This document shows, piece by piece, positions 6,696 to 15,244 of a stretch of 64,000 nucleotides of DNA. Position 1 is the first letter of the stretch. Every line of letters starts with the position of its first letter. The notes beneath the pieces were generated by a model that saw nothing but the letters and a program-made list of their open reading frames with translations, was not told where the DNA came from and made no database searches. The stretch comes from Capsulimonadaceae bacterium (GTDB lineage Bacteria > Armatimonadota > Armatimonadia > Armatimonadales > Capsulimonadaceae). The DNA lies in the NCBI GenBank assembly GCA_965215505.1, contig OZ244065.1, forward strand, positions 5,376,001-5,440,000, in the 5' to 3' direction. The translations under genes were made by a program, and so were the position numbers.

Positions 6696-7130
6696 TTAGA
6701 GCGCGTCGTTCTGGAAGAACTCGATGACCTCGCCGTCCGGCCCTTTGACGAAGGCTAGGCGCACCGGCACCGGGTATTCGCCTGCGATGGTTACGTCCTT
6801 CGGCTCGATCTGCGAGATTGCCCCCGCCGCCATGGCGCGGGCATAAGCACCGTCAACGTCCGCTGTCCGCAGGGCGAAATGCAGCAGCGCACCCTCGGGG
6901 GCTTCTTCGCCCGCCGCCCGCTTGCCCCCGGCGAAGACCTCCAAATAGTTGCCGTCGCCGGTGTCCAGCATCGCCGCCCGGCTGTCGCCTTCGCCCCAGC
7001 CGAAGGTGCGGACGAAGCCCAGGCCCTCCTGATAGAAGCGCAGGGTCGCCTCGAAATCGGACGCCCGCAGGGCGATGTGGTGGAAGCCGGGCGCGTTCTT
7101 AGGCTTTCCGGGGATATGATTATCTGACAT
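6696..7130 (-). CDS. VOC/glyoxalase family protein
   Basis: FHHIAL, LEVF, LLHFAL and GPDGEVIEFFQ metal-ligand pattern. Confidence 0.88.
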   Translation of the reverse strand: MSDNHIPGKPKNAPGFHHIALRASDFEATLRFYQEGLGFVRTFGWGEGDSRAAMLDTGDGNYLEVFAGGKRAAGEEAPEGALLHFALRTADVDGAYARAMAAGAISQIEPKDVTIAGEYPVPVRLAFVKGPDGEVIEFFQNDAL

Positions 7131-7200
7131 GTCTAGTCTCCTCCAGTCGTGGTTTGGCCGATTGTACCCGAGGCAGCGCTGTTCCTGTCTTCTCCCACCG

Positions 7201-7941
7201 GTGCGCGGCTCCTTGCGATACAAAGCCACTCGTGTTAACTCCAGCGCTTTTACGCTCCTCGAACTCCTCGTCATCCTAGGCGTCATCGCCGCCCTTGCCG
7301 CAGTCCTGCTGCCGGTCTTCTTTGCTTCGCGGGAGCGGGCGCGGCGGACGTCTTGCCTCTCGAACCTCCGTCAACTCGATACCGCGCTGTTCATGTACAC
7401 CCAGGATAATGACGGGTTCTTTCCAGTGGCCCCGGCGGATGGGGACGGGGACGGCCCCAACTGGATGGAGGCGGTCCATCCGCTTGTCAGCAGCCACGAC
7501 ATTTTCCGCTGCACTGACTGTCCTATTCCTGACCCCGTCGGCGGGCCGGATCTGACCGATGCTGGGTACGCCCTGAACTACGAGCTTTATGATGCCCGCC
7601 GATCCCCGGATGCTGGGCCGGGCACTCCGGCCTCCGACTTGATGGTATCCTTTCCAGCGGCGACGGTTTCCCTGTGTGAAGTCGGCTATCGCACGGGGCC
7701 GAGGAAAGACGACACGAGTTACAGCACGGCGACTAACGCGCCGGATACTGCCGACGACCTAAACTCCGGTGTGACCACTTTCGGCCCGCCAGGGGCGTTG
7801 CGTCATAATGGTGGAAGCAACTACGGCTTTGTGGATGGGCACGTCCGGTGGTATCGTCCCGACCAGGTAGCTGCTGCTAAAGTAACCATGAATGGGGTAC
7901 TCGTGGGAAACAACGGCTCCGCGCCGACGTTCGCCCGGTGA
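7201..7941 (+). CDS. Prepilin-type N-terminal cleavage / H-X9-DG (DUF1559-like) protein
   Basis: AFTLLELLVILGVIA, ARRTSCLSNLRQ and RHNGGSNYGFVDGHV; start uncertain (GTG 7201 vs ATG 7129). Confidence 0.82.
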   Translation: MRGSLRYKATRVNSSAFTLLELLVILGVIAALAAVLLPVFFASRERARRTSCLSNLRQLDTALFMYTQDNDGFFPVAPADGDGDGPNWMEAVHPLVSSHDIFRCTDCPIPDPVGGPDLTDAGYALNYELYDARRSPDAGPGTPASDLMVSFPAATVSLCEVGYRTGPRKDDTSYSTATNAPDTADDLNSGVTTFGPPGALRHNGGSNYGFVDGHVRWYRPDQVAAAKVTMNGVLVGNNGSAPTFAR

Positions 7942-7969: not shown

Positions 7970-7999
7970 TTGACATCCCCCGCCGCCCGCGTGTATAAT
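7970..7999 (+). promoter_or_regulatory. Sigma70 promoter of the T-box leader
   Basis: Perfect TTGACA (7970-7975), 18-bp spacer, TATAAT (7994-7999). Confidence 0.85.
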
Positions 8000-8173
8000 C
8001 AAGCCGAAGTATTCCAACAATCTTATTGAGACACAACGGCGATGACGGAGACGAGTACGCCGCGAACACTCTAGCAGAGCGATCTGCGCCAGAGAGCCGG
8101 GGGAGCTGAGAACCGGCAGGGGAAGCGCGGCGGAAAATGACTCCCGAGCCGGGTGGGGGAAAGGCGCGCTGGA

Positions 8174-8199
8174 AGGGCGAACATAAGGTTCGCCCCTAC
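8174..8199 (-). repeat. GTAG-type REP hairpin inside the T-box stem II
   Basis: AGGGCGAACATAAGGTTCGCCCCTAC, 1 mismatch from the copy at 51823-51848. Confidence 0.85.
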
Positions 8200-8340
8200 T
8201 GAGTGCCGAGTAGTTCGCTCCGGGGGGCTCCCGTGACAGGGCCAGGGTCGAAAGGGCGCGCTCATCCGCGCGCCACTTGCACCCGCCAAGGCGGACGCCG
8301 TGAGGCGTCCGTGAAACAAGGTGGTACCACGGGGGCATGA

Positions 8341-8376
8341 GCCTTTCGTCCTTGTGTGGGGGCGGACGGCTTTTTT
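8341..8376 (+). terminator. T-box intrinsic terminator
   Basis: GCC.TTCGTCCTT / GGGGCGGA.GGC stem followed by TTTTTT; shares sequence with the antiterminator 3' strand. Confidence 0.82.
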
Positions 8377-8408: not shown

Positions 8409-9686
8409 ATGCCGAAAGTGTTAGGGCTGCGCTGCCGCGAGTGCGGCGAGCAGTACGACAAAGCGCCGATTCACGTCTGCGAGCTGTGCTTCGGGCCGCT
8501 CGAAGTGCAGTACGACTACGACTTCGGGCCGAAGATCACGCGCGAGCTGATTCAGAGCGGCCCGCTCTCCATGTGGCGCTACGCCGACCTGCTGCCGCTC
8601 GACGGCGAGCCGTGCGTCGGCAAGCAGGTCGGGTTCACGCCGCTCGTCCGGGCCGAGAACCTGGGCCGCGCCCTGGGGCTGAAAGAGGTATACGTCAAGA
8701 ACGACGCCGTCAGCCACCCGACGCTGTCGTTCAAAGACCGCGTGGTCGCCGTCGCCCTGTCCAAAGCCCGCGAGTTCGGCTTTCAGACCGTCGGCTGCGC
8801 CTCCACCGGCAACCTTGCCAACTCCGTCGCCGCCCACGCCGCCGAGGGCGGGTTTGAGGCCTACATCTTCATCCCGCACGACCTGGAGCAAGGCAAGGTC
8901 GTCGGGACCCTGATCTACGGCGCGAACGTCCTGTCCGTGCAGGGCAACTACGACGAAGTGAACCGCCTGTGTTCCGAAGTCGCCGGCAAGTACGGCTGGG
9001 GCCTCGCCAACGTCAACCTGCGCCCCTTCTACGGGGACGGCTCCAAAACATTCGGCTATGAGATCGCCGAGCAATTAGGCTGGAAGGCCCCGCAGCACAT
9101 CGTCTGCCCTTCGGCGGGCGGGTCGCTCGTGACCAAGATTTACAAGGCCCTGAACGAGTTCGCCAAGCTCGGCCTGATTGACGGCGTGCCCACCAAGATG
9201 TATGTCGCCCAGGCGACCGGCTGCAACCCGATCGCGACGATGGTGAAAGAACGGTCCGAGATCATGAAGCCGGTCCGGCCCAACACCATCGCCAAGAGCA
9301 TCGCCATCGGCAACCCCGCCGACGGCTACTATGCCGCCGAGGCCTGCCGCAAGTCGGGCGGCTGGGCGGAAGATGTGAGCGATGAAGAGGTCGTGGAGGG
9401 CATCAAGCTCCTGGCCGAGACCGAGGGTATCTTCACCGAAACGGCGGGTGGCGTGACCGTCGCGACCACGCGCAAGCTGATCCGGCAGGGCGTCATCCCC
9501 AGGGACGAGAGCGTGGTCATCTGCATCACCGGCAACGGCCTGAAGACGATGGACGCCGTGCTGGGCAAGATCGGCAAGACGATTCCCATCCAGCCCTCGC
9601 TGGCTTCTCTGGAAGAAGCACTGGCAAGCCGCGCCCATGCGCTTCCTACGAAAACCATTCAGACGTCGGAACTGGTGACTGCATAA
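8409..9686 (+). CDS. Threonine-synthase-family PLP enzyme, probably an O-phosphohomoserine-dependent homocysteine synthase acting with a sulfur carrier
   Basis: N-terminal Zn ribbon CREC/CELC, SFKDR (PLP Lys), ASTGN, TGNGLK; function inferred from the Met T-box and ThiS/MoaD + NIL neighbours. Confidence 0.85.
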   Translation: MPKVLGLRCRECGEQYDKAPIHVCELCFGPLEVQYDYDFGPKITRELIQSGPLSMWRYADLLPLDGEPCVGKQVGFTPLVRAENLGRALGLKEVYVKNDAVSHPTLSFKDRVVAVALSKAREFGFQTVGCASTGNLANSVAAHAAEGGFEAYIFIPHDLEQGKVVGTLIYGANVLSVQGNYDEVNRLCSEVAGKYGWGLANVNLRPFYGDGSKTFGYEIAEQLGWKAPQHIVCPSAGGSLVTKIYKALNEFAKLGLIDGVPTKMYVAQATGCNPIATMVKERSEIMKPVRPNTIAKSIAIGNPADGYYAAEACRKSGGWAEDVSDEEVVEGIKLLAETEGIFTETAGGVTVATTRKLIRQGVIPRDESVVICITGNGLKTMDAVLGKIGKTIPIQPSLASLEEALASRAHALPTKTIQTSELVTA

Positions 9687-9809
9687 GAACCCACCCCGCC
9701 GCTAGGGGCGGCGACCCTCCCCAAAGGGGAGGGCGAAGAGTTTGTGCCTCTGTCTCTTGCCCCTTCCGTTTCGGGAGGGGGAGCCGAACTTGTGAGGCGG
9801 GGTGGGTTC
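9687..9809. repeat. 123-bp palindromic intergenic element (REP/MITE-like)
   Basis: 14-bp perfect terminal inverted repeat GAACCCACCCCGCC (9687-9700) / GGCGGGGTGGGTTC (9796-9809); internal hairpins CCCTCCC..GGGAGGG and CCCCTTCC..GGAGGGG. Confidence 0.72.
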
Positions 9810-9835
9810 CGAAGACCCGCTAGAAACGACCAACC

Positions 9836-10606
9836 ATGAGAGCCTATCGCGAAAACCTTGCGCCCGACGAGCAGGCGCAGTTCGACCGGATGCGCGCCGA
9901 GGACGCCGAAGCGCCCCGTCAGTTCGTCAATTTTGCCTTCTACAAATTGGACCCGCTGTTCCGGCGCGAGCTGTCCGAGGCCGAGCGGGCCGACGCCGCC
10001 TGCGAGCTGGCTGAGGTCATCGAGGGCGCGCAGTCGAAGTTCCTGCTTTACCCCTACAGTACGCTCGGCATCCGGCCCGAGTGCGACTTCATGCTGTGGC
10101 GCATCTCGTACCGGATCGAGGACTTCGAGGAGATGACGACGGCCCTGCTGCGGACGCGCATGGGCCAGTACCTGTCCACGCCCTATTCGTACCTGGCGAT
10201 GACCAAGACCTCGATCTATGTGGACGAGCACGACTTCGAGGACCGCGAGGCGGGCCGCAAGCAGATCGTCATCGGCGGCGGCAAGTACCTGTTCGTCTAC
10301 CCGTTCATCAAGACCCGCGCCTGGTATCGGCTGACCGCCGACGAGCGGCGGCGGGCCATGCGCGAGCACATCACGGTCGGCCACGAGTACCCCAGCATCA
10401 AGCTGAACACGACCTACTCCTTCGGCCTGGACGACCAGGAGTTCGTCGTCGCCTTTGAAAGCGACTACCCGCAGGACTTCCTGGACCTCGTCCACAAGCT
10501 GCGCGAGAGCGAGGCCAGCGCCTACACCGAGCGGGACGTTCCCGTCTTCACCTGCTTGCAGCAGGACATGCAGACCATTCTGAAGCACGTCGGCGGCGTC
10601 AAATGA
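9836..10606 (+). CDS. Chlorite dismutase / coproheme decarboxylase (ChdC/HemQ) family heme protein
   Basis: YPFIK...WY.L...ER...M.EH...G and YSFGLDDQEFVVAFE motifs. Confidence 0.85.
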   Translation: MRAYRENLAPDEQAQFDRMRAEDAEAPRQFVNFAFYKLDPLFRRELSEAERADAACELAEVIEGAQSKFLLYPYSTLGIRPECDFMLWRISYRIEDFEEMTTALLRTRMGQYLSTPYSYLAMTKTSIYVDEHDFEDREAGRKQIVIGGGKYLFVYPFIKTRAWYRLTADERRRAMREHITVGHEYPSIKLNTTYSFGLDDQEFVVAFESDYPQDFLDLVHKLRESEASAYTERDVPVFTCLQQDMQTILKHVGGVK

Positions 10607-10631
10607 CCGACCGGCAGGAAGAGGAGACACA

Positions 10632-11184: not shown

Positions 11185-11220
11185 ACGGTCCCGAGGCACC
11201 CGCCTCGGGGCTGTTCTTGT
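11185..11220 (+). terminator. Probable terminator of the T-box operon
   Basis: ACGGTCCCGAGGC-ACCC-GCCTCGGGGCTGT hairpin followed by a T-rich tail. Confidence 0.6.
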
Positions 11221-14221: not shown

Positions 14222-14362
14222 GCGAACCCGCACACGAACCCTCGCTTCTGACGGGGCAGGCGACTACAGACTATCGTAGCCGCCTGCTCCTATATGTGCG
14301 GTAGCCGACTGACAGTGCGCCTACCTAAAGCTGGAAACCTGTCAGCCAAAAGGAGACTTGCC

Positions 14363-15244
14363 ATGCCCCTGAACCATAGCCGACAAAAGCGCGGTTTTAC
14401 CCTGATCGAGCTGCTCGTCGTCATCGCTATCATCGCGATTCTCGCCGCCATCCTGTTCCCCGTCTTCCAAAAAGTCCGCGAGAACGCCCGCCGCACCCAG
14501 GGCCTGTCCAACGCGAAGCAGCTCGGCCTGGGTATCATCCAGTACGTTCAAGACACCGACGAGAAGCTGCCCCTGGCCGGACACACGGAGAGCGAAAGCA
14601 ACCCAAACTGCGAACTGGCGGAATGGCAGAACGCCATCTATCCATTCGTTAAAAGCGACGCCGTCTATAAGGACCCCGATGACACGGTGCCCGCAGGGGG
14701 TGCCAACCAGTCACAGACTGACATCGGGCAAGGACTCGGGAAGATCAGCGCTTCCAGCTTCATCATGGGCTACTATGAGACGAACGCCCCCAGCGTTGGC
14801 GGCATCCGCTCATCTCATGGCTTGAATGACTTCACCGCGCCGGCACAGTTCATCCTGTTGCGGGAGGGTGCGCGGGGCGTCTTCGGCGGCGCGTCGCGCG
14901 GGACCAATGTCCCTGACCACAATGGCAACCTGAGCACGAGCTGGCTGGCCACATATGCCGAATCAGTGCCGAACGACGCGGAGGTCCTGACCAATCCTTG
15001 CAACATCGGCGTTTACAGTGCGGCTGGGGTTCCGTTTCACAAGGATGGGGAGATCATGCTTTTCCTGGACGGCCATGTGAAGTTCTACCCGATGAACCCT
15101 CAAGGTCCCGTCGGCTACTTGAACGGCAACCTGCCCGCCTGCAAGTACACGCTGCCCAACGCAGACGATCCTTCATGCAGCCTGACTACGCCGCCCGCGG
15201 ATGGTTCTGTCAGCGTCTGGCAGGACGTAGACTGTGGACGGTAA
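14363..15244 (+). CDS. Prepilin-type N-terminal cleavage / H-X9-DG (DUF1559-like) protein
   Basis: [33 protein letters not shown] and [24 protein letters not shown]. Confidence 0.9.

Follow-up and report, generated by a model that had tools for sequence, protein, structure and literature searches.

The Cld gene lies in a methionine T-box operon

We analyzed a 64,000-nucleotide stretch of DNA (here called the window) from a Capsulimonadaceae bacterium of the phylum Armatimonadota (assembly GCA_965215505.1, contig OZ244065.1, positions 5,376,001 to 5,440,000), concentrating on one gene that encodes a member of the chlorite dismutase family (the Cld gene) and on the operon that surrounds it. An earlier note on this DNA had placed the gene in a Met-regulated operon, between a gene resembling threonine synthase (ThrC) and a sulfur-carrier gene, 25 bp ahead of the latter, and had proposed either that the protein belongs to a subfamily whose part in sulfur supply is yet to be described or that heme and sulfur assimilation are linked. 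The layout of the locus (Table 1) agrees with the first part of this description. The Cld gene stands between the ThrC-like and carrier genes, the spacer that follows it (10607-10631) is exactly 25 bp long, and the carrier gene is separated by 6 bp from a gene for a stand-alone NIL-domain protein.

Regulation by methionine was also borne out. The leader ahead of the ThrC-like gene matched the T-box family RF00230 with 55.1 bits (E 2e-11), less than the Rfam gathering score of 93; its specifier position aligned to AUG (Met), a GGUGGUACC box was present as well, and the terminator hairpin (8345-8366) was followed by TTTTTT, in a T-run that extends to 8376. Three T-box leaders were found genome-wide, all of them below the gathering score (49-78 bits), and the genes behind the other two encode an acetolactate-synthase-type protein and a class-I aminoacyl-tRNA synthetase. 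In the window's family, a T-box with an AUG specifier preceded the ThrC-like gene at all six loci examined, which represent all five genera. These homologous leaders scored 43-79 bits against RF00230, the specifier-loop AAATG was invariant in six of six, and the downstream box GGTGGTACCACG was identical in the four leaders that reach that far. In this DNA of about 65% G+C, the scanned region held two promoter-like sites, compared with 0.6 expected from shuffles; promoter and terminator calls throughout are the product of pattern scans and are not evidence of function. Collectively, the sequence signals confirm that the Cld gene lies inside a Met-regulated unit with the ThrC-like, ThiS, and NIL genes.

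Table 1. Features of the operon and of related loci. Positions without a prefix are those of the window; G and L numbers denote genomes and loci, G000 being the window's genome.
Feature	Position	Strand	Remarks
Sigma-70-type promoter-like site (TTGACA, 18 nt, TATAAT)	7970-7999	+	12/12 consensus positions; pattern match only
T-box leader	8033-8376	+	RF00230 match 8033-8356; AUG specifier 8137-8139; terminator with T-run
ThrC paralog, 425 aa, N-terminal Cys-rich stretch	8409-9686	+	PALP E 5e-66; TIGR00260 289.8 bits
ThrC-Cld spacer, 149 bp	9687-9835	+	Long stable hairpin at ~9687-9810, then an unpaired A-rich stretch
Chlor_dismutase-family protein (Cld gene), 256 aa, ATG start	9836-10606	+	PF06778
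ThiS/MoaD-fold sulfur-carrier protein, MetO-like, 92 aa	10632-10910	+	PF02597 E 1.6e-16
Stand-alone NIL-domain protein, 79 aa	10917-11156	+	PF09383 E 5e-10
Terminator-like hairpin at the end of the unit	11185-11214	+	13 pairs, 9 G-C, T-rich tail; pattern match only
Fused AhbA/B-like (siroheme-decarboxylase-like) protein, 387 aa	G000:C1:6042019-6043182 (L122 6019-7182)	-	PF17805 54.8 bits
ChdC-Rieske fusion	L138 6777-7883	-	Ferrochelatase adjoins
ChdC-Rieske fusion	L137 5368-6558	+	Ferrochelatase adjoins
Second T-box leader	G000:C1:1902198-1902490	-	
Third T-box leader	G000:C1:3286676-3286910	+	
ThiS-NIL fusion, 188 aa	L127 7593-8159	+	Genome G040
Second sulfur-carrier cluster	G000:C1:4788387-4794205 (L151 3387-9205)	-	Outside the window
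803-bp insert between ThrC-like and Cld genes	L096 698-1500		Genome G103
DUF1559 proteins on either side of the operon region	7129-7941; 14294-15244		N-terminal methylation motif (prepilin-like)

The Cld protein resembles coproheme decarboxylases

Coproheme decarboxylase (ChdC, formerly HemQ) is a heme-binding alpha+beta-barrel enzyme that oxidatively converts two propionates of Fe-coproporphyrin III into vinyls, yielding heme b. The Cld protein matched PF06778 (Chlor_dismutase) over profile positions 1-187 of 189 (E 3.2e-57; 193.7 bits compared with a cut-off of 25), and this match was the only one in the genome, indicating a single-copy gene. Its nearest solved relatives by sequence were the ChdC entries 9mhq (E 3e-25) and 6xub (2e-22), with chlorite dismutases at about 1e-14. 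An AlphaFold2 model of the protein (pLDDT 80.4, pTM 0.79) is built of two ferredoxin-like alpha+beta domains, like the enzymes in the solved structures of ChdC, and its best Foldseek matches were the ChdC enzymes of Streptomyces coelicolor and Corynebacterium diphtheriae (E 1.6e-19; TMt 0.79-0.83; 9mhq, 6xuc, and 8qwc). In the HMMER alignment, Tyr155 (within VYPF) and Lys159 coincided with the motif of ChdC enzymes and His178 with their proximal histidine. These three residues were invariant in 17 of 17 and again in 52 of 52 relatives, the latter including Met-operon copies, copies adjacent to ferrochelatase, and fusion proteins; the counterparts of Tyr155 and Lys159 are presumably the residues that act on the propionates in reference ChdC enzymes. 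In a quick tree in which 17 of 49 inner branches were open and the backbone was unresolved, the stem of the Met-operon clade (0.51) was no longer than those of other family-level clades (about 0.4-0.8).

The Pfam family name, together with a Foldseek match of the model to the chlorite dismutase of Nitrospira defluvii at TMt 0.80, could instead be taken to indicate a functional chlorite dismutase or a general oxidant-detoxifying peroxidase. We regard this as extremely improbable. Sequence scores favor ChdC by some ten orders of magnitude, and Asn191, which lies 13 residues past the proximal His, a spacing that we take to be that of the essential distal Arg of chlorite dismutases, is Asn in 51 of the 52 relatives. 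According to the cited part of a published account, chlorite dismutases need this distal Arg and have Ile where ChdC enzymes carry the catalytic Tyr (PMC7611857); the Tyr is present here.

The genome may make heme by way of siroheme

The window's genome, which is 96% complete and consists of one contig, contains a gene for ALAD and two COX1 (heme-copper oxidase) genes, which show a demand for heme. Within it, no match was found to ferrochelatase or to HemE (URO-D), and no CgoX scored above the cut-off. A search for AhbC/AhbD/NirJ-type radical-SAM enzymes, which covered the window's genome alone, likewise gave none, the three best radical-SAM matches being MoaA, TrsS/Tes-like, and ArsS proteins. 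A gene for a fused AhbA/B-like protein was found (Table 1).

In a sample of 201 genomes from the phylum, 97 had a Cld-family match. Close homologs of the fused AhbA/B-like protein (62-87% identical) occurred in 40 of the 201 genomes and ferrochelatase in 49, with no overlap between the two sets, and the Cld family was represented in all 40 of the former and in 41 of the latter. Sixteen more Cld-positive genomes had neither gene, 12 of them showing a weak AhbA/B-like match. We asked whether a DUF455 (ferritin-like) gene next to the AhbA/B-like gene might encode an oxygen-dependent replacement for AhbC. This candidate was rejected, as its close homologs were present in only 6 of 201 genomes and did not track the AhbA/B-like gene. 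Other neighbors of the AhbA/B-like gene, surveyed at 13 loci, were not conserved past the family level (dGTPase, M20 peptidase, and PTPS), and neither these genes nor the DUF455 gene yielded a candidate enzyme for the step from didecarboxysiroheme to coproheme.

Orthologs in other genomes provided further context. In the sister-family genomes G026 and G091, the orthologs are 51-52% identical to the Cld protein and carry a C-terminal Rieske [2Fe-2S] domain; that of G026 lies beside genes for ferrochelatase, a CgoX-like amine oxidase, and HemL, and that of G091 beside ferrochelatase and HemA. Ferrochelatase is also adjacent, by coordinates, to the ortholog of G193. Of the 62 longer homologs, some 40 combine ChdC with Rieske and siroheme-decarboxylase domains; they are approximately 720 aa in length and in several cases come from Chloroflexota. 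Others are fused to HemD, to the N terminus of siroheme synthase, or to a glutamine amidotransferase, and a few fusions look incidental. Its pairing with a Rieske domain suggests that this ChdC clade receives electrons. The neighborhoods of clade members in Nitrospira and Acidobacteriota were uninformative (RecA, LigT, CinA, OmpA, a dehydrogenase, and a glycosylase).

Given the complementary distribution of the AhbA/B-like gene and ferrochelatase and the existence of these fusion proteins, the clade probably acts downstream of siroheme decarboxylation wherever ferrochelatase is missing. Since the window's genome has no matches to HemE, CgoX, ferrochelatase, AhbC, or AhbD and does have a siroheme-decarboxylase-like gene, its ChdC most likely finishes a siroheme-fed route. 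We thus propose that the Cld gene product is probably a coproheme decarboxylase serving as the terminal heme synthase of such a route. Coproheme would be supplied by way of siroheme and the fused siroheme-decarboxylase-like protein, the Cld protein would convert it into heme b as the last step, and the route as a whole would be oxygen tolerant. The gene for this enzyme would have been captured inside the methionine T-box operon in the window's family, where the most plausible benefit may be that the drain of siroheme into heme is coordinated with sulfur assimilation, which also needs siroheme.

The placement of the Cld gene is conserved

Every one of the 12 genomes sampled from the window's family, which span five genera and a Cld identity of 63-100%, showed the order ThrC-like/Cld/ThiS/NIL. 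Part of this order recurs, at approximately 55% identity, in three of seven sister-family genomes: Cld is followed by NIL in G012 and G139 and by a small open reading frame (ORF) and a ThiS-NIL fusion in G040. A further sister-family genome, G079, has Cld alone. Neighbors in the two of these genomes that were scanned, G012 and G040, were otherwise unrelated (VanW, CarB, and TMEM175). A homolog of the ThrC paralog, 69% identical, lies elsewhere in G040 and G079, and with this query no close homolog was found in G012 (98% complete), G139 (92% complete), or G026. In a survey that reached beyond the phylum, the best 80 of 600 matching stretches came mostly from Nitrospirota, with additional loci from Acidobacteriota and single records from Latescibacterota and Poribacteria; the closest Cld loci among the 80 (83-86% identical) belonged to Armatimonadales or Capsulimonadaceae, and 76 of the 80 had no ThrC, ThiS, or NIL gene within 6 kb. 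A single clade comprising every NIL-linked copy was not rejected by an approximately unbiased (AU) test (p 0.5), this group having been named after the tree was seen, and all NIL-linked cases could therefore stem from one ancestral event. The position of the Cld gene within the methionine operon is genuine, of long standing, and puzzling.

Conservation of this kind may be read as a sign that the Cld protein is dedicated to methionine or sulfur supply, as a heme protein that binds or oxidizes sulfide or that passes electrons to load the ThiS-like carrier as a thiocarboxylate, together with the NIL protein. NIL-ferredoxin proteins, which presumably take part in homocysteine synthesis in methanogens, provide a model for the part that NIL would play. 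Such a role, which we consider quite unlikely, would be consistent with the position of the gene in a Met T-box unit, where the scan scored neither a promoter-like nor a terminator-like site ahead of it, with the constancy of the order across the family, and with the Cld-NIL or Cld-ThiS-NIL adjacency that G012, G139, and G040 maintain amid unrelated genes. It would also accord with the lack of an identified coproheme route in the genome, with the presence of NIL beside sulfur-carrier genes twice in that genome, and with the fact that a NIL neighbor stands in the Met-operon type where sister-family orthologs carry a Rieske redox domain. However, the catalytic Tyr/Lys/His set is the same as in the orthologs with a heme context, and no sulfur-related domain (ThiS, NIL, rhodanese, or PALP) occurs in fusion with any of the 62 longer homologs. 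The best loci from other phyla generally lack the sulfur genes, as described above. Furthermore, the organism requires heme and no other enzyme for the last step of its synthesis was found in the genome, the E1-rhodanese, JAMM, and rhodanese genes of the known pathway are present elsewhere in the genome, and G012 and G139 keep the Cld-NIL pair although the close ThrC-paralog homolog was not found there. Complex prediction for the Cld and NIL proteins returned a score of 0.00 with each of two alignments (A1 and A2) and gave no answer either way.

The ThrC-Cld junction has features of its own

No promoter-like or terminator-like site was scored by the pattern scan on the plus strand between the ThrC-like and Cld genes, and from these sequence signals the Cld gene is probably transcribed with the operon. 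The spacer between the two genes folds with a minimum free energy of -85.8 kcal/mol (z -5.9 compared with dinucleotide shuffles). The unpaired A-rich stretch ahead of the Cld start contains TAGAAAC and no Shine-Dalgarno match, whereas the ThrC-like and carrier genes both have such matches; most members of the genus have a TAGAAAC-like motif 8-15 nt upstream of the Cld start codon. The spacer was also considered as a dispersed repeat, which was rejected, as its sole match in the genome was itself. In relatives, the corresponding spacers (L093-L101) measure 0-803 bp and are unrelated in sequence, and stable hairpins were predicted in 8 of the 10 that were folded (z -2 to -13). In one genome of the same genus (G103), the 803-bp insert parting the ThrC-like gene from Cld holds an ORF. 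Given the hairpin spacer and the TAGAAAC motif, the junction may be a point of processing or attenuation or may hide a promoter that the scan missed.

RNA evidence was examined as contigs from four of 13 runs, three of which are metatranscriptomes and the fourth probably a DNA library. The contigs contained nothing but fragments from relatives (mostly 90-99% alike), which covered parts of the ThrC-like, Cld, and ThiS/NIL genes, and among the contigs listed from these four runs none bridged the ThrC-Cld or the Cld-ThiS junction.

These features bear on whether the placement has any functional meaning. A ChdC gene may have been inserted once, be expressed from its own unrecognized promoter or a processed transcript, and simply have been inherited in this order. 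The variation in spacer length within the family, the inserted ORF that G103 tolerates, the unrelated yet stable hairpins, and the fact that Cld is the one gene without a Shine-Dalgarno match and is preceded by a semiconserved motif of its own would all accord with such a history, as would the AU result, by which one event could suffice. We nevertheless think this explanation unlikely, as no sigma-70-like promoter was scored in the spacer, the order has been kept over five genera down to 63% identity and partly in the sister family despite changed surroundings, and the Cld gene sits in the middle of the operon and not at its edge.

The operon partners would fit a thiocarboxylate route to homocysteine

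Apart from its TIGR00260 match, the ThrC paralog fell below the cut-offs of the remaining threonine synthase models, and the genome carries two further ThrC paralogs elsewhere that are 34-35% identical to the operon copy. The carrier protein ends in AIAGG plus one residue, and all family homologs examined end in AIAGG plus 0-6 variable residues. Among 15 homologs of the NIL protein, the mean column identity was 62%. The only ThiF-family gene of the genome, encoding a ThiS-ThiF-rhodanese fusion, adjoins its only Prok-JAB gene (G000, 4.790-4.792 Mb). In the sister-family genome G040, the ThiS-NIL fusion lies two genes past Cld, which ties the NIL domain to the carrier.

A route of the MetM/MetO type has reportedly been described in Streptomyces by Hasebe et al. 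in 2024, as cited by the GapMind 2026 preprint. The cited passages list its parts as MetM, MetO, the hydrolase Mec, and the ligase MoeZ (10.1101/2024.10.14.618325, appendix 4; GapMind 2026 preprint) and state that MetM is frequently misannotated as threonine synthase (10.1101/2024.10.14.618325). By its sequence features, the operon without Cld would fit a thiocarboxylate route of this type, leading from O-phosphohomoserine to homocysteine, and the ThrC paralog is, on its context, a candidate MetM-type homocysteine synthase that would use a thiocarboxylate donor.

Outside the window, the genome contains a second sulfur-carrier cluster (Table 1), with genes for a PALP enzyme of 313 aa, a 127-aa protein of unknown family, a JAMM hydrolase, the ThiS-ThiF-rhodanese fusion of 492 aa, a NIL protein of 128 aa, and a double rhodanese; an Rrf2 regulator gene lies next to it. 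This cluster looks like a CysO/CysM/Mec-type cysteine system with a NIL partner. As NIL genes occur both in the Met operon and in the second cluster, they accompany sulfur-carrier genes twice in this genome.

Discussion

Identification of the Cld protein as the ChdC of a siroheme-fed route has several points against it. Neither of the known routes to coproheme (through HemE, CgoX or CgoN, and CpfC or through AhbA/B and AhbC) was found in the genome, and the fused AhbA/B-like gene falls below its NCBIfam cut-off, scoring 66.7 with the AhbB model compared with the required 125; with no coproheme-making enzyme matched, the supply of substrate is therefore something that we infer. The Cld protein itself is below both NCBIfam ChdC equivalog cut-offs (HemQ_actino, 124.5 compared with 235; PRK12276, 77 compared with 253), and His at position 132, which aligns with the distal base of actinobacterial ChdC, is present in only 28 of 52 relatives. 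The two NCBIfam models were built on Actinobacteria and Firmicutes, and on these scores the clade of the Cld protein is outside their coverage. In addition, the placement in 12 of 12 family genomes and the adjacency in three of seven sister-family genomes argue for a functional tie to the sulfur-carrier genes that a heme-synthetic role does not supply, and a housekeeping heme enzyme behind a Met-sensing terminator is odd.

The interpretation offered in the earlier note was upheld in part. It had named a linkage unique to this genome, separate transcription, and a normal ChdC in a complete coproporphyrin pathway as grounds on which it should be given up. None of these was found, as the neighborhood survey showed the linkage to be shared across the family, no separate promoter was detected in the scan, and the coproporphyrin pathway is lacking, with ferrochelatase and HemE unmatched and no CgoX above the cut-off. 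The idea of a new sulfur-supply subfamily is, by contrast, disfavored by the Tyr/Lys/His set in 52 of 52 relatives, by the heme gene clusters of the sister family, and by the fusions to tetrapyrrole and Rieske domains. The proposed link between heme and sulfur assimilation seems to gain a concrete basis, as heme would apparently be derived from siroheme, the cofactor of assimilatory sulfite reductase.

A bolder version of the siroheme-fed route can also be envisaged. The ChdC clade may replace both radical-SAM steps, converting didecarboxysiroheme from the fused AhbA/B-like enzyme to heme b, with its expression wired to methionine status because siroheme is common to heme synthesis and sulfite reduction. 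This proposal is speculative and, in our judgment, rather improbable. It would explain the 40 genomes that have the AhbA/B-like gene and ChdC without ferrochelatase, and it would also explain why Chloroflexota fuse both enzymes with a Rieske domain. If it were true, the operon would act as a point of control linking heme to sulfur assimilation.

Three routes to heme are recognized. Distribution in 40 of the 201 genomes of the phylum and the fusion proteins of Chloroflexota point to a widespread bacterial variant. Within the limited library that was searched, the literature on ChdC together with siroheme decarboxylase comprised a haloarchaeal case and reviews only, and among the papers listed chlorite dismutase was not found together with NIL, ThiS, thiocarboxylate, T-box, or methionine biosynthesis. 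The cited part of a 2026 review describes AhbD moving into bacteria with the coproporphyrin pathway and does not describe a siroheme-fed bacterial ChdC (PMC13564367). As the removal of acetate (the AhbC step) has no candidate enzyme in the window's genome, how aerobic organisms carry out the siroheme route becomes directly testable. The long retention of a housekeeping cofactor enzyme in one of only three T-box units is, moreover, unusual as a regulatory arrangement. Should the tie be functional, heme synthesis would be linked to the status of sulfur amino acids; if it is not, the operon would be a clean example of conserved gene order misleading the prediction of function.

Comparison with known systems

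The Cld protein is in the same Pfam family as the actinobacterial ChdC enzymes of Streptomyces coelicolor (9mhq) and Corynebacterium diphtheriae (6xub) and has their two-domain alpha+beta barrel, their proximal histidine, and their VYPF tyrosine with a lysine at the fourth residue after it. It differs in being only about 25% identical, in having an extra loop (residues 128-142, of low pLDDT) and a 25-residue N-terminal helix, in the location of its gene in a methionine operon and not in a hem cluster, and in the lack of matches to the partner enzymes HemE, CgoX, and CpfC in the genome.

In the CysO-CysM-Mec+ system of Mycobacterium tuberculosis, a carrier thiocarboxylate is the sulfide donor for a pyridoxal phosphate (PLP) enzyme, and a JAMM hydrolase frees the product. 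The closer match to this system is the cluster at 4.788-4.794 Mb of the window's genome and not the operon of the window, and that cluster has a NIL gene too. The operon has more in common with the MetM/MetO system of Streptomyces, in that a ThrC homolog adjoins a ThiS-fold carrier whose C-terminal GG is followed by further residues and a JAMM hydrolase and an E1-rhodanese are present elsewhere in the genome. Control by a Met T-box is specific to the window's operon, and the cited passage on the pathway names neither a NIL protein nor a Cld-family protein (10.1101/2024.10.14.618325).

The closest parallel for the proposed heme route is found in Haloferax volcanii, in which, according to the cited part of the report, the ChdC-domain protein PitA is used aerobically beside the Ahb pathway, with AhbD (PMC5746218). 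H. volcanii has both AhbC and AhbD, neither of which was matched here, and its PitA includes an ABM-like domain; the organism of the window is, in contrast, a bacterium, with a siroheme-decarboxylase-like gene that encodes a single fused protein. What the two would have in common, by analogy, is a ChdC-type enzyme that finishes heme aerobically after the siroheme steps (PMC5746218).

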